64,000 nt of DNA from an uncultured delta proteobacterium (GCA_963708295.1 CAVPSJ010000008.1:288001-352000); one strand, 5' to 3'. Shown: positions 17,753-44,256, numbered from the stretch's first letter. Translations and numbers: made by a program. The notes: generated from the sequence alone by a model not told the origin.

Positions 17753-17768
17753 TGGCATATAGATTGCT
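17753..17768 (+). promoter_or_regulatory. sigma54 (-24/-12) promoter
   Basis: TGGCAT-ATAGA-TTGCT. Predicted +1 is about 17779. Confidence 0.8.
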
Positions 17769-17781
17769 CTTTTTGATACTT

Positions 17782-20029: not shown

Positions 20030-20091
20030 ACAATGGAACACGATTCTGGGCGAGGCACCAGAGGGGACACCGTGGGATGAAAGGGGATGCT

Positions 20092-21492
20092 ATGAAACGT
20101 GAGAGAATCATCAAAGCAATAAGAACAGCCTGGGTGACCTGGGTGATACTTACGCTATGTTTTATCGGGATTCCTTCCTTGGTCGATGCGGATATCAGTG
20201 ATATTCTATTAAAATTTTACCCCTATATCACGGCCCAAGAAGAATACAGCAACAATATTTTGCTAAGCTCCAATGCAACCAAATTAGCCGATTATATCAC
20301 CACTGTCAACCCGGGATTGAGATTCTTCGATTTAAAGCCGGGCAGGTATGGGATTGATCTGGATGTTTCCGGGGGATATATCTATTACGCAAAACATCAC
20401 GATCTCAGTTATTGGAATGCCGCAGGGAGGCTTAACTCGTGGTTTGCAGTGACCCCAGACCTGAGTTTTACGCTGAGGGATTATTTCATTCGATCGGATC
20501 AAGCCAGAGAGAATGTGTACCAGAGTGATACTCAGTACAATGCCCAAGGACAGTTCATTGGCGATACACAACCTAATCAGTTTCTTGTTTCCACGGTGAG
20601 GGGAGTCCAGGCGATCTATTTCCGAAACGTTGTGGAGCCATCCATCGCATATCGCTTTGGAGGAGAAAACCGCCTTTCCCTCCTTTATCGAAACAACATC
20701 TATAGGAATGAAAATCCTCTATTCGAGGACAGTATGGAGAATACTCTTAACCCCAACCTTGACTACTGGTTCGATGTTAAAAACGGCGTATCTTTAGATT
20801 ATCGTCTCTCTTTAAACACGTATCAGGTTTCTTCGGATCAGTTAGTGAACACGGTGACTCCCCGTTATACGCACCGTTTCAATCCCAGGACCTCGATCTT
20901 TGGAGAATACCGCTTTGAATATCTGGATTCTGAATCCCCTGGTGTCGACTACTATGTTCACAATCCGAGCCTCGGTCTCCAATATAATTTTAGTCCGACG
21001 CTGATTGGTACAGCCCAAGGGGGCTATTTCTGGCAAATTCCTAAGGAAGGGTCGAAGACACAAGGTCCCTTCGTCAATTTAAGTCTTACCCAGAGAACAC
21101 CGAAGACCCAATATACACTCTCCCTTCAAGGAGGTTATACGGAGGACTATATTACGGCCCAGAATTTGGGGTTTACAAAAACCTACTCGGGGTACGGGAC
21201 GATCCAACATTGGTTAACTCAGAGATTAAGCGTTGGGCTTACGGGGTCGATGTACAGATATTTATACTCTAATAACAACCAGAAAGACTGGGTCTGGGAT
21301 GTCCGGGGCGGTCCTTCCTATTTGCTCTTTCGATGGCTGGAGACTTCATTGGTGGCTTCTTACAGAGGGGATAATTCGAACATTTCAGGCACTGATTACA
21401 CCGAATTTCGCGGGATGTTTACAATAACAATTTCCCGGCCGGGTTATCGGCCGGGTATGATGGGCGGGCCGGGTTATAACCTGTCGTTATGA
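20092..21492 (+). CDS. Outer-membrane beta-barrel associated with EPS export (EpsX/BBP2-like)
   Basis: Signal peptide, EEYSNNI, alternating aromatic beta-strands. Lies next to the short OPX. Confidence 0.75.
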   Translation: MKRERIIKAIRTAWVTWVILTLCFIGIPSLVDADISDILLKFYPYITAQEEYSNNILLSSNATKLADYITTVNPGLRFFDLKPGRYGIDLDVSGGYIYYAKHHDLSYWNAAGRLNSWFAVTPDLSFTLRDYFIRSDQARENVYQSDTQYNAQGQFIGDTQPNQFLVSTVRGVQAIYFRNVVEPSIAYRFGGENRLSLLYRNNIYRNENPLFEDSMENTLNPNLDYWFDVKNGVSLDYRLSLNTYQVSSDQLVNTVTPRYTHRFNPRTSIFGEYRFEYLDSESPGVDYYVHNPSLGLQYNFSPTLIGTAQGGYFWQIPKEGSKTQGPFVNLSLTQRTPKTQYTLSLQGGYTEDYITAQNLGFTKTYSGYGTIQHWLTQRLSVGLTGSMYRYLYSNNNQKDWVWDVRGGPSYLLFRWLETSLVASYRGDNSNISGTDYTEFRGMFTITISRPGYRPGMMGGPGYNLSL

Positions 21493-21587
21493 CCTGTAAT
21501 GAATTGAGGAAAAGAAATGCGATGCGGCGTGACTTCCTTGCAATGGCTCTTTAATTCTTAAATATTTTGAGAGGAGTAGAGGCCAAG

Positions 21588-23129
21588 ATGATCAACACCG
21601 AAAAAATTTTTAATCTTAAGAATTATTTCAAAATAGGCCTAAGGAGAAAATGGTATATCATCATTCCATTTGCTCTATCGGTGATCTTTTCTTTTGGTAT
21701 TTATAAAAATATGCCCAAGGAATATAGAGCAAGCACCCTCATCCTCGTCCAAGCTCAAAAGGTCCCAGAAAATTATGTTCGTCCTACCTTAACTGAATCT
21801 GTGGCTGAGCGGTTAAACAATATTAGCCAAGAAATTCTTAGCCGTGGCAGGTTGGAAAGGGTGATTAAAGAATTTAATCTCTATCCGGACAGGTTAAACA
21901 AATTACACATGGAAGAAATTGTAGACATGATGAAGGCAAAGATCGAGGTTAGGGTCCAGCGCCAAAATGCATTTTCAATCTCCTTTGAGGGAACAGAACC
22001 CGGAACTGTGATGCAGGTGACAAATAAATTGGCTTCGATGTTTATCGAAGAAAATCTAAGATCTAGGGAGGCACGCGTAGGAGGAACAGCCGAGTTTATT
22101 GGCAAAGAACTACAGACAATGGAGTCAAATCTGAAAAAGAGAGAGAACGCGGTCCGACAGTATAAAGAAAGAAATATGGGACAATTGCCAGGTCAACTTG
22201 AAGCAAATCTAAGAATCATTGACCGATTACAGCAACAATTCAAGACAACAAGCGAAAATCTCAACGCTGCAGAACAGAGAATTGTACTCCTCCAGGGTCA
22301 GATTGAAAAGTTAATGGACCGGCAGTCCGAAAGAGGGTCTTCCACGACGAGAAGCCTTACGCAAGATGAAAATATTCATTTAGAGCGGGGACCTGAAGAA
22401 TCATTAGCGGCACAATTAAGCGCTCTCAAGCGGGATCTCGCGAATGTTGAATCCAAATATACAGGGACTCACCCCGATGTGGTTGACCTGAAAAGAAAAA
22501 GAGCAGCTCTGGAACTCAGAGTGAAGAAACAGGCAGAAGAGCGAGAAAGACGTCTAAGAGAACTTAAAAAGCGCCACGACGAAATGATTGCTGAGGGTAA
22601 CTCACAGGCGCCTTCCCCTTTGTTAGATCCTGGTGTGGAAAGGCTGATCACCCAGTATGAAGCACAGTTTATAGACACCCAATCAGAAGCAAAGCGACTG
22701 AAAGAGGAAAGCGAAAGCTTAAAGGAACAAATTGTACTCTATCAAAGAAGAATTGAAGAAACGCCTAAGAGAGAACAAGAAATGGTTCAGCTCAATCGAG
22801 ATTACGACATTCTAAAACTTTATTATCAATCCCTTGTGGATAAGAAATTTCAGTCTCAAATGGCTGAAAATCTTGAGCGGAAGCAGCAGGGGGAGCAATT
22901 CCGGATTTTGGATCCAGCTCGTCTTCCTGAAAAACCGTTTAAGCCGAACCGCAACAACCTTTTGATCATGGGAGGTGTGCTTGGACTTGCGATCGGGTTG
23001 GGTCTAACCTGGTTGCGGGAATCCATGGACCGATCCTTTTACGAAGCGTCAGACGTGGAGACTTATTTAAAACTGCCGGTCGTGGCCACGATACTCAATC
23101 TAAACGAAGACGAGGAGAAAGCAGCCTAG
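21588..23129 (+). CDS. Polysaccharide chain-length determinant / co-polymerase (Wzc N-part, GumC type)
   Basis: LRRKW..TM, YRASTLILV, YTGTHPDV, coiled coils, FRILDPARLPEKP..TM. Confidence 0.92.
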   Translation: MINTEKIFNLKNYFKIGLRRKWYIIIPFALSVIFSFGIYKNMPKEYRASTLILVQAQKVPENYVRPTLTESVAERLNNISQEILSRGRLERVIKEFNLYPDRLNKLHMEEIVDMMKAKIEVRVQRQNAFSISFEGTEPGTVMQVTNKLASMFIEENLRSREARVGGTAEFIGKELQTMESNLKKRENAVRQYKERNMGQLPGQLEANLRIIDRLQQQFKTTSENLNAAEQRIVLLQGQIEKLMDRQSERGSSTTRSLTQDENIHLERGPEESLAAQLSALKRDLANVESKYTGTHPDVVDLKRKRAALELRVKKQAEERERRLRELKKRHDEMIAEGNSQAPSPLLDPGVERLITQYEAQFIDTQSEAKRLKEESESLKEQIVLYQRRIEETPKREQEMVQLNRDYDILKLYYQSLVDKKFQSQMAENLERKQQGEQFRILDPARLPEKPFKPNRNNLLIMGGVLGLAIGLGLTWLRESMDRSFYEASDVETYLKLPVVATILNLNEDEEKAA

Positions 23130-23139
23130 AAAAGGGAAA

Positions 23140-23263
23140 GGGGTCTAGGCGTCAAGGATTCTAGAAGTCAAGTGAAAGATTTAAAAATTTATATCATCGA
23201 AAGTTTAGTAGGCTATGCACAAAGATGCAACGACCTTTAGAAACCCTTGAACTCTTGAACCCT
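23140..23263. repeat. 8-bp-periodic imperfect inverted repeat, intergenic
   Basis: GGGTCTAG GCGTCAAG GATTCTAG AAGTCAAG ... CCCTTGAA CTCTTGAA CCC. Confidence 0.55.
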
Positions 23264-23280
23264 ATATTTTGGAATTCACT

Positions 23281-24234
23281 ATGTACGAATCTTTTTACGG
23301 CTTAAAAGAAAATCCCTTTAATGTGACTCCTAACCCCGAATATATCTATCTGGGGGAAAATCATCGGGAAGCCCTGGCGCAATTACTTTACGGGGTGAAG
23401 GAGAGAAAAGGATTTATCGTAATTACCGGGGAAGTGGGCACGGGGAAGACAACCCTGATCCACTATCTTCTCGATAAAATGAATGGGGATCACACCAAGA
23501 CAGCCCTGCTGTTTAACCCAAAGCTGACTGTTGACGATTTTATTCAATACATATTGAAAGATCTTGGGGTAAGGGTTCAGGGGAAAACGAAGGGCGAATA
23601 TCTTCATAGTCTGCATCGATATTTACTCCACGCATACCAGAGGGATGAAAGAGTGATTTTGATAGTCGATGAAGCCCAGGGTTTGAAACCGGAGCTGCTC
23701 GAAGAGATTAGGCTTCTCTCAAACCTCGAGACATCAAGATCGAAGTTGCTCCAAATCGTCTTGCTCGGGCAACCGGAATTAGATAAAACCCTTTCCCAAC
23801 CGGGGTTTCGTCAGTTAAGGCAGCGCATTAATTTACGATACCATTTGCCACCTCTTTCCGAAAAAGAGACCAAGGAGTATATCGGGAAGAGGTTGAGAAT
23901 TGCAGGCGCCAAGGAGCCCATTTTTACGGAGAAGGCGATTAAGCAAATTTACTCAAAATCGGGAGGGATCCCCCGATTAATAAACATTCTGTGTGACAAT
24001 GCATTATTAAATGGATATGCCCTAGACCAAAAAATGGTTGGTGAAAGGTCAGTCAAGGAGGTGGCTAAAGATTTGTATCTGAAGAAGAAGTCTCTCCGAA
24101 TTTGGATTTTGGTCCTGATCTCTATTTCTATTGCGCTAGGTATTCTATTTTTCATTTATTTTCAGAAAAGTGGTCATCTGTTGCCCCTGATGAGGATATT
24201 CTCAGAGGCTTTCAATACATTAAAGAAAGGTTAA
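23281..24234 (+). CDS. ExeA/GspA-like AAA ATPase (XrtA/PEP-CTERM-system-associated type)
   Basis: MYESFYGLKENPF, GEVGTGKTT, LIVDEAQ, LLGQPEL, GGIPRLIN. Confidence 0.93.
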   Translation: MYESFYGLKENPFNVTPNPEYIYLGENHREALAQLLYGVKERKGFIVITGEVGTGKTTLIHYLLDKMNGDHTKTALLFNPKLTVDDFIQYILKDLGVRVQGKTKGEYLHSLHRYLLHAYQRDERVILIVDEAQGLKPELLEEIRLLSNLETSRSKLLQIVLLGQPELDKTLSQPGFRQLRQRINLRYHLPPLSEKETKEYIGKRLRIAGAKEPIFTEKAIKQIYSKSGGIPRLINILCDNALLNGYALDQKMVGERSVKEVAKDLYLKKKSLRIWILVLISISIALGILFFIYFQKSGHLLPLMRIFSEAFNTLKKG

Positions 24235-24403
24235 ATAAAGAAGGATCAGCATTTTCTCAATTTCTTTGGGTTAGAACTTTATGTGTTACACATGGTTAAG
24301 GATGACAGGCGTGAGGATGCTGAACTGGAACACGGCGAAAGAGGCGAACTTTTCTACACCTTGCGTCTAACGCGTTCAGGAATATAAATGAAAGGATGAA
24401 CAT

Positions 24404-25246
24404 ATGAGTCGAGTCTATCGTGCCCTTGAAAAAATAGAGGAAGAAAGAAAACAGAAGCTAGAAGAACCCTCTCTTAAAGTAGTTGAGGAGAAGACTGTTC
24501 CGAGGAAGGAAGGACCCGCTTTAGAATTTCGTGAAGAGAAGATAGAGAAGTTGGGGCTCCCTCCAAAAGAAGTCGCTCCTGTTTTAATTGTTCCGCCCCA
24601 TTCTTTTGGTTCAGAAGCATTCCGGAAACTGAAGACTCAGATTTTCCTTCATCCGGGGAATTCTCCTCGTACGATTCTCGTTACGAGCGCAGCACCGCAA
24701 GAGGGGAAAACTCTGGTGGCTGTTAATTTAGCGGTGGCCATTTCAAAAGAAATTCATAGCAACGCCATCCTCGTTGATGGAGACCTCCGAAGGCCGGGGA
24801 TTCATCTTGAGAAAACTCATAGCACCAGGGGCCTCTCAAATTATCTTTCGGATGGGGTTCCCTTATCAGAGATTTTGTTAAATTCTGAGATAGAAAAACT
24901 TCGAATCATTCTGGCAGGTGCTTCGACCCGTAAGTCCTCCGAGCTCATCAGATCAAGAAAAATGGGAGAGCTTCTACAAACCCTAAGAGAATATGGAGAT
25001 AACACCTATATTGTGATCGATTCCCCGCCTATTATGGCAACACCCGATCCAACCTTACTCTCTAAAATGGTAGATGGAATCGTCCTGGTGATAAGGGCCG
25101 GGTATACGTCCAGGGAATCCGTACAAAGCGCAATCAAGTCCATCGATCGCGAGAAGATTATCGGAGTGGTTTTTAACCAAATAAATATTAAGCCATCCAC
25201 TTATTCTTCTGAGTATTATCGATATTATCAATACTATAGGAAATAA
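24404..25246 (+). CDS. CpsD/CapB-family BY-kinase (Wzc C-part)
   Basis: EAFRKLKT, PQEGKT, LVDGDLRRP, IDSPP, Tyr-rich tail YYRYYQYY. Confidence 0.95.
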   Translation: MSRVYRALEKIEEERKQKLEEPSLKVVEEKTVPRKEGPALEFREEKIEKLGLPPKEVAPVLIVPPHSFGSEAFRKLKTQIFLHPGNSPRTILVTSAAPQEGKTLVAVNLAVAISKEIHSNAILVDGDLRRPGIHLEKTHSTRGLSNYLSDGVPLSEILLNSEIEKLRIILAGASTRKSSELIRSRKMGELLQTLREYGDNTYIVIDSPPIMATPDPTLLSKMVDGIVLVIRAGYTSRESVQSAIKSIDREKIIGVVFNQINIKPSTYSSEYYRYYQYYRK

Positions 25247-28417: not shown

Positions 28418-30495
28418 ATGAAAAGGCTCTTACGGATATTTTTATGTGTCATCCTCCCTTGCAGCCTTTCCTATGCGAAGAATACAGTAAATATACAATC
28501 TTATATCCTTCGGAATAGGGTAGTCGTATTGGATCAGGTCTTAATGAAAAAAGCTCTCTATGTCTCTTTCTCATTCAGTGGGAGTATAAAACAACATGAA
28601 GATCTGAGTGTTCATGGACTTCTTCTAAACGGTGATAAGATCGTCTCTGAAACCTCTCTGAAGGCTTTTAGTGAAAATAACGGTAACCTCGTTTTTGACC
28701 TTCCTTATCAGATATCCGATGGTGAGTACACGATAAAAATTGACGTTCTTACTAACAAGGGAAGTTTAGCGGGGACAGGATCTGTCGCTGTTAAAAGGTC
28801 TGCCTTAAAGAGTTACTTTTATCCGGAAAGTGAGGTTTCTGCTCGCGCTCTTGAAGAAATCCCCGTTAATGAAGGACTTGAAGAAGTCAGGCCGACGATC
28901 CATGATAAATCCGTAGGCTATATGATCTTTTCTCGATCTCCCCTCGAGTATGTTTTTCCTGGGAGGAAACCTAAAAAGTCCGAGATTATTGAGCATGTTA
29001 TGATCAGAGTCGTTCGTAATGAATTTGAACCGTTTACCTTTTCGCTTTATCCTCTTCAAGACCTGGGGACGGTCAAAATATCGGTAACCGATTTAAAGAG
29101 TGCTAAAGAGATCATCTCTAAAAACAAAATAAGGGTTGCTTCCGTTGAAAGGGTACAGGAGACCATTGGATTGCCAGAAGGAAGATTCCTAGATTTGCCA
29201 ACTCTAATCCGGCCGGGAAATCAGGTAAAAGTTGAGAGCGGTAAGTGCCAAAGATTTTGGCTGACCATCAGAATCGACGATAACGTTTTGCCCGGAGCTA
29301 TATAAGGGTAGAATAACGATATTCCCTCAGCATGGATTAGAAACATCGCTTCCTCTCGAAGTAACAGTGTTCGCCCATCTCTCTTGAGGACATTCCAGGG
29401 ATCGATTATTTTATGTTAATGACGTACGAGTTTACAGAATTGACGATGCCTTGGAGTAGTGAAGAGAAAGAGAAAATCTATAGATCAGCTTGTCACATTC
29501 TCGAGGATTACAAAGAGCACGGGATGACCACCCTTTGTTTGCATTCACCTTTTGTACTCATCACAAAGGAAGATGGCACGCCTAACCTTGAGGATATCTT
29601 TGCTGCTTTAAGAGCGGCAAAAGAAATTGGGTTTAAGGCACGGATTATATGGTATATGGGGCATCTTATTCAAACATCTAAGCCTAAACATCCGGGGAAC
29701 ATCATAAGTTTTGATAAGGGGGTTCATTTGTCGCGGCTAAAATATATCGTGGAAACCGTATCTCGGTATGCGAAGGAGCATGGTTGTCCTGAAGTTATTT
29801 TTTTGCCGATTGATGAACCGGGTGATTCGTATCAGGACTTTCAGGATAAGCGCCGGGCCATCACAGCGGTTTTGCTCAAAGCAATAAAAGACTTAGGTGC
29901 CAAAACTATGCTTACGAGCGGTGACCATAAACAATTTAGACCTGTTGATTATTTATGCTCTGGCAAAATGAATAAACAAGATTTAGATGAGGCACATAAA
30001 AGCGGTTCTGTTTACTGGTTATATAATAACGACGTGACTACAAAATGCCTCAGTCCAGCTTATGCCAGATACATTTATGGCTATTACACCTGGATGAATC
30101 ATGTGGATGGGATATCGTCCTGGACGTTCCAGAATACCCAGAATGCAAGGGGCCTGCCGGGACAGGCTGATGTTCATGGCAGCGATATCTATCTTGCGTA
30201 CCCAGATCCGAACGGTCCCATCGCTACTCTTAGATGGGAAGCGATGAGGGAGGGGATAGATGATCATAAGCTTTTATATCAATTGGTGAAACGGATAAAA
30301 AAGCTGGAAGAAAAAGGAATCGATACATCCAAATATAAGGAATTTCTTTTGGGAATCGAGAACAAAGAGGGGACACCTGGCTGCCAAGAAAGAGACGATG
30401 ACAAGTGGACTCCAACATTTTTCGAAGAAAGCAGGGATCATTTAATCTCAATGATTTTAGATGCAATGGCAAAATTAGACCGTTCCCAATCTTGA
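28418..30495 (+). CDS. Secreted glycoside-hydrolase-like protein (GH123/DUF4091-like), two apparent frameshifts at ~29300 and ~29372
   Basis: Signal peptide, RNEFEPFTF, QRFWLTI, DEP, and C-terminal ATLRWEAMREGIDD. Track ORFs 28379..29305 and 29413..30495 join through a short third-frame segment. Confidence 0.65.
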
Positions 30496-30542
30496 CCTGA
30501 CAATCGTCATATTTTTGCGTATATGTCTTGAAGGAGATTTCT

Positions 30543-30815
30543 ATGGAACTTAATGAAATTAAAGAAATTACAAGAAAAATAGTTGTCGAAATCATTGCAT
30601 CAAATAGCGAAACCGATGAGATACCAGCAAAATTTGGTGATGATGATTCCTTAATTGATGGGGGTCTTATAGATTCTATTAGTTCAGTTCAATTGATCGA
30701 GGAATGCGTACTGAACTTCGGCGTCCTCATCCACCCCGCTGAACTTTCATTAGAAAATTTTGATACCATCAATAGAATTTGTGAGTTTATTCAATCAAAA
30801 TTGGAAGAAAACTAA
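30543..30815 (+). CDS. Stand-alone acyl/peptidyl carrier protein (DltC/VinL-like)
   Basis: Acidic 90 aa, phosphopantetheine site GLIDSISS, ENFDTI. Confidence 0.9.
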   Translation: MELNEIKEITRKIVVEIIASNSETDEIPAKFGDDDSLIDGGLIDSISSVQLIEECVLNFGVLIHPAELSLENFDTINRICEFIQSKLEEN

Positions 30816-30817
30816 CC

Positions 30818-32449
30818 ATGGAGCTAATTCGAGAGATCAGTCAAGTTTTTTCTCAACATAAGGGAAGAGCGGCAATTTCCCGTTACACTCCTCCGAATTC
30901 GTCGATGACTTTAACCTACGGTCAACTAGGGGAAAGAGTTGGAGAATTAGCCCAGTTCTTGCTGGAGCAGGGGATGCAGCCGGGTGACTTGGTTATGAGC
31001 TATATGACGAAGTCACTTGAACTGGTAGTATCAATATTGGCTATCATGTTAAACGGGGGTGTGTGTAGTTCCTTTTACTCCAAACAAAATCCTCAGTATC
31101 CACTGAAGCTGCTTTCAATTGCGTATCCGAGATTTCTTCTGTTGGATGAGAGCACATTAAGAAATATGAAGAAATCAATGAAAATAACTGGGTCAGAGAA
31201 CCGGTATCCTGTATATATGAAATATTCTGAATTCGAGGGGACAGCATTCGCGCAAGATCATCCTGGGAAGGCAATTTATATTTTGAGTGATCCAGCAAGC
31301 AAGAATGACGGCGGGAATGAAGTGCCAGCGATTGATCATCGTTTGAACGAGGCCGCTTGGTGTCTGTTCACATCAGGTTCGACAGGTGTCCCGAAGGGTG
31401 TTCTTATATCGAGAGAAGATCTGTTGCGAAGGGCTATGACAGAGCGTGAGGATTATGAATTAACGGATCAAGACAATCTGTTAAGCTTGCTTCCCTTTTC
31501 ATTCGATGTGGGCTTAAATCAACTCCTGTCGTGCATTTTATCCGGAGGCCATCTTGTGATTTTGAATTCATGGTTTCCAAAAGATATTTTAACAACGATT
31601 AGATCTCAAAGCATTACTGGAATTTCAGGCGTTCCATCCATATGGGCTGATGCAATCACCTATCCGAAAGAACCCGATTTTGAGCAAAACATTCGAACTT
31701 TAAAGTACATAACTGTTTCGGGAGGAGATCTTGCGAAAAATCAATTAGTGCGGCTAAGACAATACTTTGAAAATGTGAGGATATTTAAGACTTACGGACA
31801 GACCGAGACTTTTAGAAGCAGCATACTCAGGCCTTCCGATTTTGAAGGGAAGATGACCTCCGTTGGCCGTGCTGTCAAAGGAACGGAGGTGTTTATCCAA
31901 AACGACAAGGGCGAAGTCAATCCTCCAAACATTGAGGGAGAGATTGTTCATCATGGCGTTGGGACAATGCTCGGGTATATTAATGATTTGGAAGGAACTA
32001 ACGGAAAGCTGCGAGAGATTGTGAAACCAGTGAGGGGAACTGTGAAGGAGGGGAAATCGGTATTTACGGGTGACCGGGGGAGAATGGATGAAGAAGGGTA
32101 TCTCTACGTGTTGGGCCGTGAAGATGGAATGATAAAAACCTTAGGACACCGGGTTTATCCAAAGGAAATAGAAGGCTGTATACTGGAGCACAAGCATGTG
32201 AAGAATGCTGCCGTTGTCGGAATCATAGACGAACGGAAGGGACAAGCTATTATCGCAGAGGTTGTTGCCAATGAAGTCTTGGATAAGCCCAGCTTAATTG
32301 GGTTCTTAAGGGAACGATTACCATACTACATGATTCCCAGCGAAATCAACTTCGTGGAACGCTTACCGATGACAGAAAATGGAAAGATAAAGTACACAAC
32401 CATTAAGGAAAAATATGAGGAAAGAAGATTTCTACAAAGTCATTCCTAA
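30818..32449 (+). CDS. Adenylation enzyme 1 (AMP-binding; exosortase-A-associated acyl-CoA ligase / VinN-like)
   Basis: FTSGSTGVPKG, LPFSFDVGLNQ, YGQTE, TGD, PMTENGK. Confidence 0.88.
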   Translation: MELIREISQVFSQHKGRAAISRYTPPNSSMTLTYGQLGERVGELAQFLLEQGMQPGDLVMSYMTKSLELVVSILAIMLNGGVCSSFYSKQNPQYPLKLLSIAYPRFLLLDESTLRNMKKSMKITGSENRYPVYMKYSEFEGTAFAQDHPGKAIYILSDPASKNDGGNEVPAIDHRLNEAAWCLFTSGSTGVPKGVLISREDLLRRAMTEREDYELTDQDNLLSLLPFSFDVGLNQLLSCILSGGHLVILNSWFPKDILTTIRSQSITGISGVPSIWADAITYPKEPDFEQNIRTLKYITVSGGDLAKNQLVRLRQYFENVRIFKTYGQTETFRSSILRPSDFEGKMTSVGRAVKGTEVFIQNDKGEVNPPNIEGEIVHHGVGTMLGYINDLEGTNGKLREIVKPVRGTVKEGKSVFTGDRGRMDEEGYLYVLGREDGMIKTLGHRVYPKEIEGCILEHKHVKNAAVVGIIDERKGQAIIAEVVANEVLDKPSLIGFLRERLPYYMIPSEINFVERLPMTENGKIKYTTIKEKYEERRFLQSHS

Positions 32450-33627
32450 AGAAGAACTCAAGAATCTAGTCAATAAGATAGAGCTTCCTGCCTTTATATA
32501 TTCTAAGGAGATTATCAGAAGAAAATATGAAGAATTATTGGATTGCCTTCCCAAGGGTTTTGAAATCCACTATGCCTTTAAGGCGAATCCGAACCAGGAT
32601 GTTCTCGGATTCATTCGATCGCTTGGCGCGGGTGCTGATGTTGCATCCTTAGGGGAACTGCAGTTAGCAGTGGAGAAAGGGTATTCCATAGGGAAAATCG
32701 AATTCACTGGTCCTGGTAAAACCCTCGAGGAATTATCATCGGCGATTGATCTTGGGATATCTTCCATAAACGCTGAGAGTGTTTCAGAAATCAAGAAAAT
32801 TGTAGATATATCCAAGAGAAAAGGCAAGAACGCCAATGTGGGAATACGAATTAATCCAATAATGAACGTCAAAAGGTTCGGCTATGAAAATGGCAGGGGA
32901 TACTCAGTTTGGTATTATAGAAAATGAACTCGGGAATGCCTTTACTATCATTGAAAAAGAATCTAAGTATCTGAGATTCACAGGACTGCATATGCATTTG
33001 GGTTCTCAGTTCCTCGAGGCAGAGAAACTGATTTCGAATTTCAGATTCATTCTTGAAAAAATATATGAGATCACAAACCAGTACAAAATAGAGCTGAAAA
33101 AGATTAATTTCGGTGGAGGATGGGGGATTGACATATTTGGCAATAAACCGCCTCTCGATCTGCGGCTTGTCCATAGGAGCTTATCAGAACTATTTACAGA
33201 TTCAAAATATAGGACGGTTTTTGAAAACACTCACTTTATCGTGGAGCCCGGCCGTTTCTTGGTAGCGGAATGTGGCATTTATGCCGTGAAAGTACTTTAC
33301 AGAAAGAAAGGGTACAAAAAGGAATTTCTGGTTGTTAATGGAGGGATGCACCAAAACTATTTAGCAGCGGGTGGCATTGGTCAGGTGATTCGTAGAAACC
33401 TTGAAGCCGATGTCATGACAGATAATAATTATTGTGAAGGGGTCGCCAAATACACCGTTGTGGGGTCTCTATGCATTCCGGATGATGTGCTCGGTTCTGA
33501 GCTTGAGTTACATTCAGAGATAAAGGAAGGAGATACTCTTCTTTTTCATAATTGCGGGGCATACGGTTATTCTGCAAGCCCTTTAAAGTTTTTGAGTCAT
33601 GCTTTTCCAAGGGAAATCGCGATTTGA
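32415..33627 (+). CDS. Fold-type III PLP-dependent decarboxylase (LysA/BtrK/VinO-like), +1 frameshift at ~32873
   Basis: YAFKAN (PLP Lys), GPGK, HMHLGSQ, NFGGG, EPGR, GSLC, GAY, split over track ORFs 32415 and 32884. Confidence 0.88.
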
Positions 33628-33665
33628 TGGCTGTATGAAGCTCGAGTTGGTTAGGAGGGGTTCGT

Positions 33666-35204
33666 ATGGAAACAATCATTGATCTTCTTGAAAGGAGTTT
33701 TTCTCTCCATAAGGCGAGGGTGGGGATAAGAATTTACGATGACATGTGGACTTACGATGATCTGCAGAATCTGTCGAGTAAGGTATCAGGTTTTCTATTA
33801 AAAGCAGGGATCAAAAAGGGGGAAAGAGTCGTTGTCCTGATGAACAAGTCTATCTATTTGTACGCCGCGATTGTTGGAATTATGCGGGGCGGGGGAGTCT
33901 ATGTGCCATTGGATGGAAGGACTCCATCTGCGAGAATAGCCAGGATATTAGAAGACGTTGAGCCGTTCTATGTTTTTATTGATCATCATTCTTTTAAAAA
34001 CTATCAGGGAGCCCAACGCCTTGTGAAGAATCAGTTTAAAGTGCTTTATTTAGATGATTGTGAAAACGAGCTTTATGAAAGAACAAGTTTTAGAGAGAAG
34101 TTGATAAAAGATAAGGAGAAATGTCCATCGGTCTCCTCAGAAGATTTAGCGTTAATATTACATACCTCCGGGTCGACGGGGGTGCCCAAGGGCGTCATGA
34201 TATCACAGGGGAACTTATATAATATAGTAAATTACACTATAAAAGCCTTTGAATATGGACCCGAAGAAGTAGGAAGCGCATTGAACGCAAGTTCTTTTGA
34301 TATGTCAATGACGGACATGTTTTCAGTCTTATGCTCAGGTGGAACGTTAGGTGTATATCCTGAAGAGTTGATATTTCCGAAGGATATATTGGACCTTACT
34401 TATAAGTACGGAATTACCAAAATGTGTTTGGTACCCTCCTCCCTGAGCTCGTTAGTTAATAGTAACCTAATTCAACCGGATTTACTGAATAGGCTTAAGG
34501 ATGTCTTTTTAATTGGTGAGTTGATACCCGCCAATACGTTATTTACAATCATGGACATGTTACCTGGAACAAGGTTCCATAATTGGTATGGGCCGGCAGA
34601 AACAACCAATTATAATTCAAACCATACTTTTAGCAAGCGGTTAAACCGGCGGGCGAAAAATTTCCCCATTGGGTTTCCAATCGCAAGCAGTAAGTTCATT
34701 TTGGACAGAAAGGGTTTTGAAAATGAAAGGGGAAAAGGAGAGCTTCTCATTCTAGGGCCGCAGGTGGGATTGGGTTATTGGAATGATCCGGAAAAGACGA
34801 AAATTGTCTTCGGAGTCAATGAAAATGGAGAACGATATTACAGAACAGGAGATATTGCTTCCTTTGACCCGAGAGTTGGGTACTTTATCCATGGTCGAAG
34901 GGATCATCAAATAAAGTTCAAGGGATATAGAATTGAATTGAGTGAAATTGAACACATTGTGTCTCTGTTGCCTGTTGTTAAAGAGAACGTTGTTGCTCCC
35001 ATTTATGAAAATGGCAGGGTCGAGGAACTGAGGCTCATTTACTCCGGTGAAGGGGATTGCGGAAAGGAGATTAAGAAGCACCTCATTAAACATCTGCCGA
35101 ATTACATGATTCCAAAAACGATGATATCCGTTGAGGGCCTCCCCAAAAATCAGAATAATAAAATAGATAGGGTGTTAATCAAAAAACTGTATGGGGGGAA
35201 ATAG
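33666..35204 (+). CDS. Adenylation enzyme 2 (amino-acid adenylation, DltA/VinM-like)
   Basis: YVPLD, HTSGSTGVPKG, SFDMS, NWYGPAE, YRTGD, GYRIELSEIE. Confidence 0.9.
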   Translation: METIIDLLERSFSLHKARVGIRIYDDMWTYDDLQNLSSKVSGFLLKAGIKKGERVVVLMNKSIYLYAAIVGIMRGGGVYVPLDGRTPSARIARILEDVEPFYVFIDHHSFKNYQGAQRLVKNQFKVLYLDDCENELYERTSFREKLIKDKEKCPSVSSEDLALILHTSGSTGVPKGVMISQGNLYNIVNYTIKAFEYGPEEVGSALNASSFDMSMTDMFSVLCSGGTLGVYPEELIFPKDILDLTYKYGITKMCLVPSSLSSLVNSNLIQPDLLNRLKDVFLIGELIPANTLFTIMDMLPGTRFHNWYGPAETTNYNSNHTFSKRLNRRAKNFPIGFPIASSKFILDRKGFENERGKGELLILGPQVGLGYWNDPEKTKIVFGVNENGERYYRTGDIASFDPRVGYFIHGRRDHQIKFKGYRIELSEIEHIVSLLPVVKENVVAPIYENGRVEELRLIYSGEGDCGKEIKKHLIKHLPNYMIPKTMISVEGLPKNQNNKIDRVLIKKLYGGK

Positions 35205-35401
35205 TCTCTTTGTGCAGAAATGCATTTCTGTGAGGAAACAGCAACAGAGATTCTTCCAAGTTAACTGAAATCCCATTGTGATAGGGTGGTTCGTTTGATG
35301 CCGACCTCAAGAAAAATGGCAATGTCACCCATTTCAAAAAATCGTCAAGTAGATTACTTTGAAAGAATTCAATCTGGTATCACATAGGCTGAGGTATCTA
35401 T

Positions 35402-36034
35402 ATGCGGATCATTATTAGGTTACTGAGATATGTCTCAATAAAGCTGAAAGAAATAAATGAAGAGTATAAATACAACCCTTCTACAATTGCCGAAAAGTTT
35501 CGAAAACAAGGAGCTAAAATTGGAGAGAATTGTTCAATTCAGATTAACCGCTTAGGATCTGAGCCCTATCTTGTAGAAATTGGAAATAGCGTAGCGATAG
35601 CTATCGGCGTTAGATTTCTTACACATGATGGTGCAAGCTTCATCTTTAGGGATGAATTTCCTGCCCTTCGATATTTTGGGAAGATAGTCATTGAGGACAA
35701 TTGTTTCATCGGGGCGCGTTCGATTATCTTACCGGGCGTAAGGATTGGTAAGGGTTCTATAGTTGGGATGTCGTCAGTCGTTATCCGAGATGTTAAGCCG
35801 GGAAGTATCGTTTTTGGCAATCCTGCTATCCAGGTTTCCACAGTAGAGAAATACAGAGAACGATGTTTACAAGAATGGAAAAACCAAGGTTTAGATAAAT
35901 TTAACCACCTTTTCGAAGGGAAAAATAAGTCCGAAGTGCAGGAGGTTATGGAATCGAAAGAATTCAGAGAGAAGTTAAAGGAACATTTGTTGTCAGTTGA
36001 ACTTAAGAATGACGAGAGAAAGAAATATGCATGA
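35402..36034 (+). CDS. Hexapeptide-repeat (LbH) acyltransferase
   Basis: GSEPYLVEIG, THDG, IEDNCFIG..ILPGVRIG..GNPA. Confidence 0.9.
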   Translation: MRIIIRLLRYVSIKLKEINEEYKYNPSTIAEKFRKQGAKIGENCSIQINRLGSEPYLVEIGNSVAIAIGVRFLTHDGASFIFRDEFPALRYFGKIVIEDNCFIGARSIILPGVRIGKGSIVGMSSVVIRDVKPGSIVFGNPAIQVSTVEKYRERCLQEWKNQGLDKFNHLFEGKNKSEVQEVMESKEFREKLKEHLLSVELKNDERKKYA

Positions 36035-38331: not shown

Positions 38332-38733
38332 ACCTTGGAGATGAATCACGGAATAAGGGATGATGAGTTTAGAGAACATGACGGAGGGTGCCTTCATTCA
38401 AATTCGAGCCCGTTCCTACGTAAGGTAATAGCGCGCGACGGGCAAACGCAGAAAGAAATGATCATAGTAATCCTGTGGGTCGCGCTTCTATTGGGCATTG
38501 AGCAAGTGGCAGGAAAGATAAACGCTCCGTGCAAATAGCCAAAGAACAAGAGATAATCCGAACCCTTCCAGAATACCAGGCCCGGTTTGCCTGTGTCTCG
38601 AACGACCACCCTTTCCACCCAGCCTAGCTGCAACAGGTCATCGTGGCGTTTTCCATCCTATTCGGATGGATATGAAACCAAGAGATGTCAGTTGCGACGC
38701 CCGGAAAATGATGAAGGGAATAGGAGGAGAAAG

Positions 38734-39795
38734 ATGAGTGAGCTGACAACGAATGCCCCCCAATCAAAGAAGAGCCAGAAGATTACCCCTGATCCGAGAA
38801 GAAGCTCGAATCAAAAGATGGCAATCATGGATGTAACGTTCAGAGAGAGTGTCCTTTGCCGGAAGCAAATTGACTTGGAGGCTGTGCTTAGCACGATAAG
38901 GAAGCTCTCGGAGACGGGCATCACGTACATTGAAATTGGATACCTTAAGTTCGGCTCAGGATCCAATTCTCTTTTGAACTATTCGCCGGATTACATCAAG
39001 AAGTGCTACGAAATCTGTAAGGGGAAGGTAAAGATAGGAGCGATGATTCACCCGGACGATTTCTCTCCTGAAAGATACACTGAGGATGTAGTTAGGCAGC
39101 TATCATTAATTAGGGTCACAAGCACCCCCGGGAACATGCACAAGATCAAGGATATTTGCAGTTATTTTAAACCCCTCGGGGTAAGAGTCAGTATGAACTT
39201 GCTCCGGGCATCAAAGTTTTCCGACGAGCAATCGCTCGATTATTGTGCAAGGGCGCAGGAATTTGGCGCTGATTTCTTTTACATCGCTGACTCGAATGGT
39301 CATTTTTTGCCCCATCAAGTGAGGAGTCGCATCGTCGCGCTAAAAGAGCATTTTCCGGAAATGACAATAGGATTTCACCCGCATGATAACTTAGGATTGG
39401 CGGCAGTGAATGCGATAGAAGCAGTGCAAGGTGGAGCGGATATTGTTGACAGTTCCCTCCTGGGGTATGGGAAAGGGGCTGGAAATCTTCGAACAGAGCT
39501 ATTCCCCTTGGTCTTAGGGAGACTGACGGGAGAGTACAAGATAGAAGAAATTTATACGCTATTCAAAGTCGCACGACACTTTTACCATAATGTCGTATCG
39601 CCTAATACCTTTGAGGAGGAGTACAAATTTTCATTGTATGGCCTTTTCGATATCGATCTCGATGTAGACAAGAAGATATGTGAAGTGAGCGATGTGAAAG
39701 GGCTCGAAGACCATGAACTTGCCTTTGACTTGATCAGGCAATCGAATGGAAACATCGGCAACCTGGACAGCCTGCTTAAGAAATTAACATCGTAG
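38734..39795 (+). CDS. HMGL-like DRE-TIM metallolyase (4-hydroxy-2-oxovalerate aldolase-like)
   Basis: DVTFRES, IEIGY, YIADSNG, GFHPHDNLGLA, GKGAGN. RBS GGAGG precedes 38734. Confidence 0.8.
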   Translation: MSELTTNAPQSKKSQKITPDPRRSSNQKMAIMDVTFRESVLCRKQIDLEAVLSTIRKLSETGITYIEIGYLKFGSGSNSLLNYSPDYIKKCYEICKGKVKIGAMIHPDDFSPERYTEDVVRQLSLIRVTSTPGNMHKIKDICSYFKPLGVRVSMNLLRASKFSDEQSLDYCARAQEFGADFFYIADSNGHFLPHQVRSRIVALKEHFPEMTIGFHPHDNLGLAAVNAIEAVQGGADIVDSSLLGYGKGAGNLRTELFPLVLGRLTGEYKIEEIYTLFKVARHFYHNVVSPNTFEEEYKFSLYGLFDIDLDVDKKICEVSDVKGLEDHELAFDLIRQSNGNIGNLDSLLKKLTS

Positions 39796-39871
39796 ACCGC
39801 CAGGATCATTACCCAGCAATCGAGCGACGTCATGTCGTAATCTTGGGGGGCCTAAGAACTTAAAGGGAGGT

Positions 39872-40591
39872 ATGAAGATGGAGAAACGACCAAGTTTTGC
39901 AAAGATGCATCCTGGCCCTGGGTTTAGGATCAAGGAGAGCTTTGAGAGGATAGACCCCGAACGGATAGCGAAACTTCTTGACTATTCAACACCCGATATT
40001 TCCGATCAATTAAATCGACTCTATGCTGTTAATCCAGAAATTAGATGTTTAAGCGGGAAACACCATAAGCTGTGCGGTCAGAGTTGTACGGTTAAAGTGT
40101 TCCCGGCGGATAACCTGATGGTTCATAAGGCTTTAGACATCGCTAAACCGGGAGATGTAATCGTGGTTGATGCTGGAGCGTCACCCATGAACGCTGTGAT
40201 CGGGGATGTCATCTGTATGAAAGCTAAGCACAGAGGGATTGCTGGATTTGTTATAGACGGGTTTATCAGGGACTTACCCGCAGTCTCGGACCTTGATTTT
40301 CCTGTTTTCGCAAGGGGCACCACTGCGATTGGGCCGCTCCATAATGGACCCGGCGAAGTGAACTATCCCGTATGCTGCGGGGGTGTCGTTGTCAACCCCG
40401 GGGATATTGTTGTTGCCGATGGAGGTGGCGTTATCATTATCCCGAGTGACATTCTCCTGGCATTGTCGGAGAGGTTAGAGACGGATAAGAAAAGAAAACG
40501 GGATTACTTGGATTCGGTGCAAAGAGGAGAGTTTTCGAATGAATGGGTAGAAGATATTTTACGAAACGGAAAGTGTGAAATTGTGAAATAA
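39872..40591 (+). CDS. RraA-like / 4-hydroxy-4-methyl-2-oxoglutarate aldolase family
   Basis: DNLMVHKAL, PGDVIVVD, DGFIRD, VNPGDIVVAD. Confidence 0.88.
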   Translation: MKMEKRPSFAKMHPGPGFRIKESFERIDPERIAKLLDYSTPDISDQLNRLYAVNPEIRCLSGKHHKLCGQSCTVKVFPADNLMVHKALDIAKPGDVIVVDAGASPMNAVIGDVICMKAKHRGIAGFVIDGFIRDLPAVSDLDFPVFARGTTAIGPLHNGPGEVNYPVCCGGVVVNPGDIVVADGGGVIIIPSDILLALSERLETDKKRKRDYLDSVQRGEFSNEWVEDILRNGKCEIVK

Positions 40592-41858
40592 ATGGCTGCG
40601 GGCGATTTCAAAAACAAAAATATTAATTTACCTCCTGTCATCATATTGGGGGGTAGTACAAATGCGATATCTATAGCGAGGAGTCTAGGAAGACAGGGGA
40701 TAAAGGTCTATGCATTGAATTCTCACGAATCATACATACGATTATCAAGATTCAGCGAGTGGATAAAGACGGATTCGGATAATGGAACTGACGAAGCGTG
40801 GGCACGGTTTCTTCTGAGTTCAGAATCCGATCATCTTAAAGACGCAGTCTTACTCACGGGTTCTGATTTGGGAATTGAGTTTATAGCAAAAAACAGGGAG
40901 AAATTATTGAAGAAGTTTATTCTTGATATATCGAAAAAAGAGGTTCAACTATGTTTACTCAATAAACTGTGTACGTATGAAAAAGCTTTGGAGGCCGGGG
41001 TACCCATCCCGAAATTCTGGAGAGTGGAAAAGCTGGAACAGATCTTAATGCATGAAAAGGAATATATGTATCCATTGATCTTAAAGCCCATTTACTCACA
41101 TAAATTTGTAGAGGTGTTTAACAGCAAGTTCTTTGTGGTTAATAGTTTTGACGAGCTTTTGAATGCCTATTCGAAAATCGATCGATTCGGTATTGAAGTC
41201 ATGCTTGTGGAAAAAATCCTCGGGCCTGATGATAGATATTGCAGTTATTATACGTATTTAGACGAAAACGGCGAAGCGCTTTTCGATTTTACGAAGAGGA
41301 TTATCCGGAGATACCCCTGTAATCAAGGCGGTGCCTGTTATCACATCACCGACTGGAATCCCGAGGTACGAGATTTGGGTTTAAAATATTTCACTCACGT
41401 GGGGCTGATCGGGCTTGCAAATATTGAGTTCAAAAGAGATGATAGGGATGGAAAATTGAAACTCATTGAATGCAATGCAAGATTCACGGCAGCAAACTGC
41501 CTTGTCGCAGAAAGCGGATTTGACCTTGCCCTGTTTGTCTATAATCGCCTCGTCGGACGGATTCAGCCAACGTTAAAAGGGAAGACGTTATAAGGAAGGG
41601 TTAAGACTTTGGTATCCTGTAGAGGATTTCTTGTCATTCAAAGAACTCAGAGGAAGAGGCGAGCTTAGTTTCATGGGATGGATAAAGAGCATCATGCATC
41701 CTCAGGTATTGCCGTATTTCCGGTGGTATGACCCCATACCCACGATTGTTTTTGGATCGAAAAGAATATTCCGGTTCATTAAGAAAGGAATACCTCGTTT
41801 CCAATTTATTCAGAAAAATCATCGGAGAAATAGATTTGAAGGTGAGGCAAGGAAGTAA
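40592..41858 (+). CDS. ATP-grasp carboxylate-amine ligase (D-aspartate-ligase-like), +1 frameshift at ~41587
   Basis: IARSLGRQG, YPLILKP, EFKRDDRDGKLKLIECNAR. The C-terminus continues in ORF 41631..41858 (WYDPIP). Confidence 0.82.
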
Positions 41859-42064
41859 AAGGGTCAAGTCTTGTTTTATCTTCATGAACTGTTCCGGTGG
41901 CGATCTCATGGCAAAGCGGAAGATCAAGCGTGTGCTTTTCCGAGGGGCTGCGGGAGCGCCCCGGGATCGAAGCTAAATGCCCGGCAGCCGTAGCCCGGGC
42001 CGAGTTTTCAGAGGCCTAGATGGAAACACTGATGACCGAGGGCGACCATGGGAGGAGGGCTTAG

Positions 42065-43182
42065 ATGAGATTTTTGTTTCGCTCACGACCGGTGCTGACT
42101 GGGCTTCGCGTCCTGTCGTACGGCCAGAGGCTGAGGCGGGTACTGTTGCGACGAGGCGACGGATTCGACGCCGAGAGCAGCCGCGGCTTCCACCGTGAAG
42201 TTTGGCGGACTGCTGCGGCCCGGCTTGGTGGCGGAGATTCGTGAGCTGCCCGGGGACTTCTTGGAGGTGCGTTACGGGCAGCGGTTCACCCGTATTAAGA
42301 AGTGGTGGGTCATGCTCGACGACCCGGTGACACTGAGCTTGGCTGGGAACAAGGCTGCCGTTCATGCGCTGTTGATGGAGGAAGGACTACCAGTGCCAGC
42401 CCACCTAACCTATACGCTCGACCAGATCGGGAGGGCGTGGGACTTTCTGCGCGGCCAGGGCACGCCTTGCGTGGTAAAGCCTGCGTCCGACACGGGCGGG
42501 GGACACGGCGTCACGACCGGAGTTGAGACACGCTGGCAGTTAGCCCAGGCCTCAGCCGTCGCTGCGACCTTGGGGCATGAGCTGTTGATAGAGCGCCAGA
42601 TCGAGGGGGACAACTACCGTCTGTTGTATCTGGACGGCGTGCTGATCGACGCCTTACGCCGGGGCGGACCCACTGTGATCGGCGATGGCCGTTCCAGCAT
42701 CGGCGAACTGATCCGCCGCGAGAACCTGGAGCGGGCCCGGGGCAGGCGCGCTGTGCTCGGTCCGATCACGATTGACCTTGACTGCCGGTCCACTCTGCGA
42801 CGGGCTGGCCTCTCGTTGCGGTCCGTTCCTGCTGCTGACCAGACGGTGAGAGTGAAGATGGCGATCAATGAGGGCTCCGAGCGCGATAATCAAACAGTCC
42901 TCGGGCAGATCGGCGCATCACTGGCCCAGCAGGGAGCACGAGCTGCTGCAATCGTTGGAGCGCAGGCTGGCTGGCGTGGACGTGATAACGAAAGACCCAA
43001 CTTTGCCTCTCGAGGCCTCGGGGGCGATCATCGAGGTCAATACAACGCCCGGGATAAGATTCCACTACATGGTCTGGAATCAAGAACAGCGGGTGGAGGT
43101 GGCGGTCCCGATCATGCGCTACCTGCTGGGCTTGGGCACGTTCGAAGAGCCTCAGGGGGACTTGAATATGGAGGTACGGTGA
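42065..43182 (+). CDS. Cyanophycin-synthetase-like ATP-grasp protein (ATP-grasp part only), two +1 frameshifts at ~42230 and ~42963
   Basis: RBS GGAGGAGG and ATG 42065. Motifs VVKP..GGHGVT, IERQIEGDNYRLL, GDGRSSIGELI, LAGVDVIT, IEVNTTPG. Confidence 0.78.
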
Positions 43183-44256
43183 GCACGGAGCTAGACGAGA
43201 CGACGCCCCTTCGTTACTCCGGATGCGCATACCCGCTTCGTCTTAGACGTGATGCGAGCAACGGGTGCGAGCAGTGAAGACAGCGAGGTGGTGGCGGAAG
43301 GCCTTTTGTGGGCGGATCTGCGGGGGCGCCACACCCAGGGCTTGACTCGGCTGCCAAACTTTGTCGAGCGTCTCTCGAAGGGATTGATTCGCTCACCCGC
43401 AGCCATGGTCTGGCAGGAGGTCGGGCCAGCCGCCGCTCTGCTCGACGCCGGACACGGACTCGGCCACGTGGCCAGTCGGCTGGCCATTCTGAGGGCTGTC
43501 GAGCTGGCGCGTGCCCAGGGTGTGGGGCTGGTCGCGGTTCGCCACAGCAACCACTTCGGGGCGGCGGGCTACTACTGCGCGATGGCAGCTGCGGCGGGCT
43601 GCCTGAGCTTCAACTACACGAATGCATTCCCAAAGGTAGCACCCCACGGCGGCAGAAAGCCAGTGCTGGGCACTAATCCAATCGCCTTCGGCTGCCCGAC
43701 ACGCGGCGCCGGCCCGCTACTTGTAGACCTGTCCACCGGCGCACTCTCCGGAGGGGAAGCGCGCTCGACGGGCGACAAAGGAGGACGACTGCCTCCAGGC
43801 GTAGCTCTCGATGCGGAGGGACGTCCTACCCAGGATCCGGCTGCGCTCAAGATGGGTTGCCTGCTACCGGTTGGCGGTGCGCGCGGTTTCGCGCTTGGTC
43901 TGATGGTCGAAGTCTTGAGCGGTATACTGACCGGATCAGCAGTTGGCAAGGAGGTCGGATCGCTGTTCTCCACGTGGGATCGACCTGTTGACGTTGGCCA
44001 CCTCTTCATCGCGGTTGACATCGAGCGCTTCCTCCCGCTATCGGAATTCCTGGATCGACTCGACAGACTCCTGGCCTGGATCGCCGCCACACCGCCGATG
44101 GAAGGGTTTGAGGCGGTTCGCATCCCCGGCGAGATCAGAGCGCAGCTTGCCGAGAAGTATGCCCGGGAAGGCATCCCTGTTGCACAGGAATCAGTGGCGC
44201 CGCTCATGCAGCTTGCGCAGCGTTTTAATCTCCCTTTGCCCTGGAACCATGAATGA
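43179..44256 (+). CDS. Ldh_2 family oxidoreductase (ComC/AllD/DpkA-like), +1 frameshift at ~43210
   Basis: ADLRGRHTQG, SNHFGAAG, GTNPIAF, RIPGE. The GTG start overlaps the previous TGA. Confidence 0.88.

Follow-up and report, generated by a model that had tools for sequence, protein, structure and literature searches.

We examined a 64,000-nucleotide stretch of DNA from an uncultured delta proteobacterium (GCA_963708295.1, CAVPSJ010000008.1:288001-352000; hereafter the window, with positions counted from its first letter), in which a small cassette of carrier-protein and amino-acid-activating genes lies among polysaccharide genes. The cassette consists of four adjoining genes on the + strand: a stand-alone acyl carrier protein (ACP), an adenylate-forming enzyme (A1), a decarboxylase dependent on pyridoxal phosphate (PLP), and a second amino-acid adenylation enzyme (A2). 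It is followed by what is left of a double-GNAT acyltransferase gene with an N-myristoyltransferase (NMT) fold, called X365 here, and by a hexapeptide-repeat transferase.

30528..30815, + strand: ACP, stand-alone carrier protein of 95 residues; motif DGGLIDS; PF00550, 23.6 bits
30818..32449, + strand: A1, adenylate-forming enzyme of 543 residues; motifs FSFDVGLNQ and TYGQTE; TIGR03098, 362.1 bits
32415..33627, + strand: PLP fold-III decarboxylase; motif HYAFKANPN; read as 32415-32927 (170 residues) and 32884-33627 (247 residues)
33666..35204, + strand: A2, second stand-alone amino-acid adenylation enzyme, 512 residues; motifs SSFDMS and WYGPAE; AA-adenyl-dom, 299.7 bits
35274..35381, + strand: X365 remnant, last ~36 codons, found by tblastn
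35402..36034, + strand: hexapeptide-repeat (LbH) acyltransferase; PF00132; NeuD/PglB/VioB-type C-terminus, 59 bits

The first-pass annotation, made from the sequence alone, had named the four genes and their motifs, and both the open reading frames (ORFs) and the family matches agree with it. The likely start of the ACP is the ATG at 30543. The overlap that had been described between A1 and the decarboxylase is also present: It measures 35 nt, the decarboxylase starting at 32415. For the decarboxylase itself, the PLP fold III and the HYAFKANPN motif hold, but the single open frame does not, the gene being split over two frames in the assembly.

The conserved core: carrier, ligase, and decarboxylase

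We collected 80 metagenome loci encoding relatives of the decarboxylase (numbered with the prefix L) and labelled their genes by the window's proteins. Upstream DNA of at least 1.6 kb is available for 55 of these loci, and in 54 of them the gene immediately before the decarboxylase is A1; in the sole exception, L077, it is 1.7 kb away. This arrangement is far from chance. The ACP was found upstream in many related loci, and the Gly and Ser of its GxxDS motif are invariant in 10 out of 10 aligned ACPs. The protein itself has only weak matches, to DltC, OlsHI-ACP, and AmcB.

The A1/decarboxylase pair had been likened to the exosortase-A-associated ligase and decarboxylase families, and TIGR03098 and TIGR03099 are indeed the best-scoring families for the two proteins. 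The A1 score of 362.1 bits falls under the TIGR03098 cut-off of 592.35, which the canonical A1s of L024 and L078 exceed (638.3 and 651.6 bits). On TIGR03099, the two halves of the window's decarboxylase score 126.1 and 204.3 bits and an intact relative, P0001, 343.9 bits; the canonical decarboxylases of L024 and L078, at 465 and 442.8 bits, are both slightly under the cut-off of 478.45. By the family description, a TIGR03098 ligase adjoins a TIGR03099-type decarboxylase, and the same neighborhood is found in the window, through the 35-nt overlap, and in the 54 loci counted above. NCBI has named the pair without assigning it a function and rates both models as hypothetical equivalogs, and a literature search, with subscription journals and supplements outside its coverage, returned no study of the exosortase-A-associated ligase/decarboxylase pair.

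With these families, named "exosortase A system-associated," the window has in common the order ACP, ligase, decarboxylase and an apparent, below-cut-off XrtA-type exopolysaccharide (EPS) context, and its A1 shares the pocket positions D-x-N-x-T-x-x-R-S-K with canonical members. The differences lie in the scores (362 vs. 592 for the window's A1 and 344 vs. 478 for P0001) and in the downstream genes, only the window's clade having A2 and the X365 double GNAT. When 36 decarboxylases are placed in a maximum-likelihood tree, with the diaminopimelate decarboxylase (LysA) of the genome as the root, the canonical clade (support 96/95) and the clade of the window's relatives (100/99) form separate branches; since the groups were set by similarity tiers, their monophyly is not independent evidence, and the tree shows depth rather than an independent grouping. 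Because the scores fall under the curated cut-offs and the branch is separate, sequence comparison places the cassette in a sister lineage of TIGR03098/TIGR03099, outside the NCBI thresholds, rather than among their members.

For the amino-acid pockets of A1 and A2, ten positions were read from Stachelhaus motif offsets and a MAFFT alignment with generic adenylation (A) domains. By this reading, the A1 pocket is DVNSTSTRSK in the window's clade and D(A/Y)NA(T/S)(T/S)MRSK in canonical loci. The amino-binding Asp, N239, T299, R330, S331, and K517 are conserved in 57 of 57 aligned A1s that are linked to a decarboxylase. The conserved Asp and Arg would suit an amino acid with an extra carboxylate.

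The decarboxylase had been likened to BtrK, an enzyme for ACP-bound glutamate, and the comparisons place it nearer BtrK than LysA. In PDB searches, P0001 scores 227 bits on BtrK (7ru7, 2j66) vs. 142.5 bits on the best LysA, and the canonical member from L024 scores 296 vs. 175 bits. The decarboxylase family and BtrK have an insert of ~10 residues after GGMH that is absent from the genome's own LysA, and at the position where LysA reads CESSD the family reads C-(I/T)-P-x-D. That LysA is encoded separately and is a true one (527 bits; cut-off 298). The enzyme is thus nearer BtrK than the diaminopimelate, ornithine, and arginine decarboxylases, and it is encoded beside an ACP and a loading enzyme, both features of a BtrK-type protein. 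Used as a query against 60 relatives, 14 of them in the same genus, the C-terminal half of the decarboxylase had no match at E ≤ 1e-20, a threshold that would also hide matches at the level of LysA.

Variable neighbors of the core and the exopolysaccharide locus

A2 is a rare addition. Downstream DNA of at least 1.6 kb is available for 60 related loci, and A2 follows the decarboxylase in three of them, all in the closest tier: L007 has two copies in tandem, L008 has one, and L011 has fragments. None is present in L009, and L004, from a Syntrophales metagenome-assembled genome, keeps a remnant of 113 residues. A protein search delimited an A2 clade of 49 sequences at 47% identity or more, after which identity falls to ~35% in generic stand-alone A domains; 12 matches from the A2 and decarboxylase lists lie on equally long contigs, which we read as co-occurrence and not as proof. 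The pocket is variable, with 21 codes among the 49 sequences and different codes in the tandem copies. The code of the window's A2, DMTCFIWNYK, is found in 11 sequences, this A2 counted among them, that are at least 81% identical.

Besides AA-adenyl-dom, A2 matches the NCBIfam DltA model (265 bits). Among PDB entries it scores 179 bits on DltA (3e7w) vs. 110 bits on 8k4r, which we presume to be VinM; A1 scores 107.5 bits on VinN (3wvn), no better than on DltA or PheA. A specific relationship of A1 and A2 to VinN and VinM, beyond the shared logic that the first-pass annotation proposed, is not borne out, neither protein being nearer to them than to DltA or to the domains of nonribosomal peptide synthetases (NRPSs), with the proviso that 8k4r is only presumed to be VinM. 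The analogy with the Vin system is therefore one of logic, not of descent.

A stand-alone paralog of A2 is present on another contig of the genome, C17 (L088, G000:C17:22000-41000, 9789-11521), with 67% identity to A2 and the code DMAFHGSFYK. Behind it lies an X365 remnant that an in-frame TAG interrupts. Its neighbors are fragments of an integrase and of IS66, an Acyl_transf_3 gene, and a gene for a PEP-CTERM protein, and there is no decarboxylase. The segment resembles part of a related cassette that has been transposed.

X365 is a protein of 355-370 residues encoded between A2 (or the decarboxylase) and the hexapeptide transferase in L007, L008, L009, and L011. It has weak NMT and GNAT matches in Pfam and no match in NCBIfam; 57 representatives were found at E ≤ 1e-3 among 1.84 billion proteins, and its Atlas neighbors are GNAT clusters. 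The predicted model (predicted local distance difference test [pLDDT] 90.5; predicted template-modeling score [pTM] 0.88) has its best Foldseek matches in the PDB to N-myristoyltransferases (E 3e-16, TM 0.63-0.69), and X365 is thus predicted to have a tandem-GNAT N-acyltransferase fold. In the window, tblastn with the L011 and L007 proteins detects the remnant at 35274-35381 (E 1.7e-5 and 3.2e-4, 47%-55% identity), exactly between A2 and the hexapeptide transferase, the site of the full gene in relatives. Judged by this comparison, the gene is truly deleted from the window. A hidden Markov model built from the four X365 proteins matched, outside those four, a remnant in L004 only. A broader profile gave weak matches (E 1.6e-6 to 4e-3) to proteins of 340-390 residues encoded just upstream of the ACP in some canonical loci, which we treat as a lead only.

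The hexapeptide transferase, whose best PDB match is QdtC (50.7 bits), lies beside the cassette in five of five relatives with downstream DNA (L004, L007, L008, L009, and L011). Together with the ACP, A1, and the decarboxylase, it is constant in the close clade. An intermediate clade of decarboxylases has another arrangement, in which an Acetyltransf_3-type GNAT of ~180 residues directly follows the decarboxylase, replacing A2 and the double GNAT:

L012:10236-10799: Acetyltransf_3-type GNAT gene
L013:7399-7938: Acetyltransf_3-type GNAT gene
L014:3047-3562: Acetyltransf_3-type GNAT gene

By its gene content the window appears to be an XrtA/PEP-CTERM-type EPS locus, and the expectation that the cassette would have a glycan-related setting is supported by the glycosyltransferases, deacetylases, and XrtA-type EPS genes around it. 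Near the cassette the order is nucleotide-sugar dehydrogenase, cassette, hexapeptide transferase, GT4 glycosyltransferase, and deacetylase; farther along are a flippase, a Wzy-like gene, more glycosyltransferases, a DegT aminotransferase, and a priming transferase. XrtA-type families are the best matches for the export, chain-length, ATPase, tyrosine-kinase, and glycosyltransferase genes, all with scores under the cut-offs. Two further groups of genes belong to the locus:

12558-18810: sigma-54 regulators
19415-25246: export protein, beta-barrel protein, chain-length determinant, TIGR03015-type ATPase, and tyrosine kinase

The regulators form part of a regulator-rich run ahead of the EPS genes (11464-18810), in which three sigma-54 activators are accompanied by a hybrid histidine kinase, a short GGDEF ORF, and two lone receiver proteins. 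The best family for one of the three activators is that of the PEP-CTERM-box regulators, with a score under the cut-off. Inside the EPS locus, 38587-41593 holds an HMGL-like aldolase, an RraA-like aldolase, and an ATP-grasp ligase, a block that may produce and attach an unusual organic-acid or amino-acid substituent. A GC-rich island at 42001-44000 (63.4%, vs. ~42% in its surroundings) carries a cyanophycin-synthetase-like ATP-grasp gene (42195-43277) and an Ldh_2-family dehydrogenase gene (43249-44256); either horizontal insertion or a chimeric assembly could account for it.

Reading-frame breaks in the window's copy

An intact reading frame, which a BtrK-type enzyme should also have, is missing from the window's decarboxylase as assembled. 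Alignment to P0001, an intact protein of 403 residues, traces the split to one extra base at 32869/32870, in aacg[t]caaaagg. P0001 reads INPIMNAKGSAMKMAGD at the break, where the window has INPIMNVK and continues one frame on with GSAMKMAGD. The two halves are otherwise open, with 92% and (C-terminal half) 97%-98% identity to P0001. A programmed frameshift was considered and is ruled out, all of the 403-residue relatives being encoded in a single frame.

Logan contigs from four runs were aligned to 30500-35300, and in none of them is the extra base found. A 355-nt contig (X1, four mismatches) lacks it, as does a contig from another study (X2); the contigs compared are relatives' sequences, the best run containing 23% of the sampled words of the window. 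Other genes are broken in the same assembly. Directly 5′ of the ACP lies a GH123-like gene whose frame breaks all fall within ~80 nt:

28544..30486, + strand: GH123-like gene in three reading frames, found by tblastn with the L009 homolog

Against the intact L009 homolog of 663 residues, residues 1-255 of this gene are in frame 2, residues 250-275 in frame 3, and residues 275-647 in frame 1. Elsewhere in the genome, four of the six resistance-nodulation-division (RND) efflux pump genes are in pieces in different frames (contigs C4, C13, and C18), but rpoC is intact, a pattern that indicates assembly indels. The assembly thus seems to carry many indels in accessory genes. Two adjoining ORFs in different frames at 55941-57795 correspond to the glutamine-amidotransferase and Asn-synthase parts of one XrtA-type amidotransferase, for which canonical loci have a single TIGR03108-like gene of 650 residues; this is probably another frame break, although the tblastn match for the Asn synthase is weak.

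Since P0001 and the contigs of two runs lack the base, and since the assembly is rich in frame breaks, we regard the split of the decarboxylase as probably an assembly artefact. The alternative is that the cassette in this genome is a decaying, non-functional remnant, in which the frameshifts in the decarboxylase and in the GH123-like gene and the deletion of the GNAT gene are all real. The extra base is, after all, present in the assembly, the GH123-like gene upstream has two further breaks, X365 is down to ~36 codons, and decay of a like kind is seen in near relatives, where A2 is reduced to remnants in L004 and L011 and X365 to one in L004. Yet the ACP, A1, and A2 are intact, both halves of the decarboxylase are otherwise open and close to P0001, the base is absent from contigs of two runs in two studies and from every other contig compared, and the broken RND genes beside a whole rpoC speak for assembly indels. 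We consider wholesale decay possible but rather unlikely. Whichever holds, this copy is damaged or mis-assembled, and because its GNAT gene is deleted it would be at best a variant without one transferase.

Proposed chemistry and rival explanations

Pathways that build beta- or gamma-amino acids on a carrier protein provide the closest model for the core trio. According to one review, BtrJ, CtaD, and FlvN attach Glu or Asp to an ACP through the side-chain carboxyl, and BtrK, CtaF, and FlvO then decarboxylate the alpha-carboxyl to give gamma-aminobutyrate (GABA) or beta-alanine (PMC11350588); a second review gives the same scheme for VinN, VinL, VinO, and VinM (PMC11284099). The likeness to the butirosin system, BtrI/BtrJ/BtrK, is strongest at the decarboxylase, whose nearest solved relative is BtrK, and extends to the proposed logic of a tether through the side-chain carboxyl followed by alpha-decarboxylation on the carrier, as described in PMC11350588. 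In contrast, we saw no BtrH- or BtrG-type genes here, and the target would belong to a polysaccharide locus instead of being an aminoglycoside. BtrJ is an ATP-grasp enzyme, whereas the loader here is an adenylate-forming (ANL) enzyme. The review calls the butirosin step simply "adenylation" (PMC11350588).

The vicenistatin system VinL/VinN/VinO/VinM, the corresponding fluvirucin FlvL/N/O/M, and the closthioamide enzymes CtaD/E/F share with the cassette, as proposed here, an ACP that stands alone, an adenylation enzyme of the ANL type whose substrate is an acidic amino acid, and a PLP decarboxylase that acts on the aminoacyl-ACP, and the Vin and Flv systems also share the second adenylation enzyme (PMC11284099). 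They differ from it in that A1 and A2 have no specific relationship to VinN and VinM and in that the window-type A2 is optional, with zero to two copies and variable pocket codes. The 49 window ORFs scanned against Pfam include no VinK-type acyltransferase, no VinJ-type peptidase, and no polyketide synthase; the relatives carry the NMT-fold GNAT in place of a VinK-type transferase. A third point of comparison is DltA/DltC, the D-alanylation system of teichoic acids, which A2 resembles by its scores and the ACP by its weak match to DltC, and which likewise decorates a cell-surface polymer by a carrier-protein route, as we propose here. Unlike that system, the cassette has a decarboxylase and a second adenylation enzyme, and its scores are under the DltA cut-offs (476 and 560). 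No Pfam match to DltB (MBOAT) or DltD was found in the scanned window ORFs.

On balance, we lean toward reading the cassette as a thiotemplated aminoacyl-decoration module of an XrtA/PEP-CTERM-type EPS locus, in a sister clade of the exosortase-A-associated pair, and rate this as somewhat better than an even chance. A1 would adenylate a dicarboxylic amino acid, Asp or Glu (nothing separates the two), and thioesterify its side-chain carboxyl to the dedicated ACP. The BtrK-like decarboxylase would then remove the free alpha-carboxyl on the carrier, giving beta-alanyl- or gamma-aminobutyryl-ACP. In the window's clade, one or two A2 enzymes would activate a second amino acid, different from strain to strain, which may extend the free amine in the manner of VinM or be loaded in parallel. 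Finally, an acyltransferase would move the group onto the polymer or its sugar precursor, at an amine or hydroxyl; the candidates for unloading the carrier are the relatives' NMT-fold double GNAT, the always-present hexapeptide transferase, or both. Homology and gene linkage give good support to the core chemistry that the first-pass annotation proposed, and a Vin/Btr-like logic for the trio is plausible; a VinM-like step by A2 and delivery to a glycan are working hypotheses.

Several observations tell against this proposal. We infer the amino acid, the activated carboxyl, and the acceptor alike, and the pocket assignments draw on motif offsets and alignment rather than on a structure. By sequence scores, A1 and A2 stand no nearer to VinN and VinM than to DltA and NRPS domains, and a long-chain fatty-acid-CoA ligase subfamily matches A1 as well (254 bits). 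On the side of delivery, the hexapeptide transferase resembles acetyl-CoA enzymes, and no full-length relative of X365 was found in the 91%-complete genome. A2 and X365 occur in all four combinations of presence and absence (the window, L004, L007/L008, and L009); they vary independently, so that neither is essential to the core. The only exosortase found in the genome, on contig C15 (268.8 bits), is unlinked to the cassette locus.

The carrier-bound product could instead serve to build a linker or anchor to which exosortase attaches PEP-CTERM proteins, or a lipid head group, and not a glycan decoration; the linker idea belongs to the way NCBIfam/TIGRFAM describes the family. XrtA systems are what the canonical families are tied to, both an exosortase and PEP-CTERM proteins are encoded in the genome, and the ACP weakly resembles an ornithine-lipid ACP. 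We nevertheless find this explanation improbable, given that the cassette's neighbors include glycosyltransferases, deacetylases, a flippase, and a Wzy-like gene and that the exosortase is on another contig, far from it. Still less probable, indeed very unlikely, is that both enzymes work on free metabolites, A1 as an acyl-CoA ligase and the decarboxylase as a second one for diaminopimelate or ornithine. The NCBIfam name "acyl-CoA ligase" invites that view, LysA comes second among the families that the decarboxylase matches (P0001, 246.9 bits), and many relatives are labelled "diaminopimelate decarboxylase" by JGI. However, BtrK scores clearly above every LysA, the CESxD motif is changed and the BtrK-type insert present, a true LysA is encoded elsewhere in the genome, the FDxx Asp of A1 is of the kind typical for amino-acid activation, and the dedicated ACP upstream is conserved.

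A further alternative touches A2 alone. It could act like DltA, joining an amino acid of its own by a thioester to either the same ACP or a different carrier for separate transfer to the polymer, and the outcome would then be two or three independent substituents and not a dipeptide. The scores favor this view, A2 being nearer DltA (179 bits on 3e7w and 265 bits on the NCBIfam model) than the presumed VinM, 8k4r (110 bits), as do the copy number of zero to two, independent of the core, and the stand-alone paralog on C17, near an Acyl_transf_3 gene and without a decarboxylase. Against it, L007 and L008 each have one recognized ACP per locus, the scanned window ORFs include neither a DltB-type MBOAT nor DltD, and genes of the A2 clade were found only beside the BtrK-like decarboxylase clade. 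We therefore regard a DltA-like role as a minority possibility, and the same applies to the independent substituents that it would entail.

A more ambitious version of the aminoacyl-decoration proposal, which we offer as speculative and doubtful, is that the close clade is a modular NRPS-like system for peptide decoration, in which a constant beta-alanyl- or GABA-ACP primer is extended by one or two interchangeable A2s whose specificity pockets differ and the product is fixed on the polymer by the NMT-like double GNAT. If so, the groups would be strain-specific di- or tripeptidyl ones, giving by a thiotemplated route a serotype-like diversity of EPS in anaerobic sediment bacteria, and the ligase and decarboxylase families associated with exosortase A would for the first time have a chemistry. 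The window is a poor exemplar for pursuing any of this because its decarboxylase is frameshifted and its transferase deleted; the intact relatives in L007 and L008, or the contig of P0001, are better ones. For the family as a whole, the BtrK-like decarboxylase, the invariant Asp and Arg of the A1 pocket, and the conserved ACP together suggest a concrete, testable chemistry, in which Asp or Glu would pass by way of beta-alanyl- or GABA-ACP to a polymer, and the A2-bearing clade may represent a route to variable aminoacyl or peptidyl decorations of EPS.

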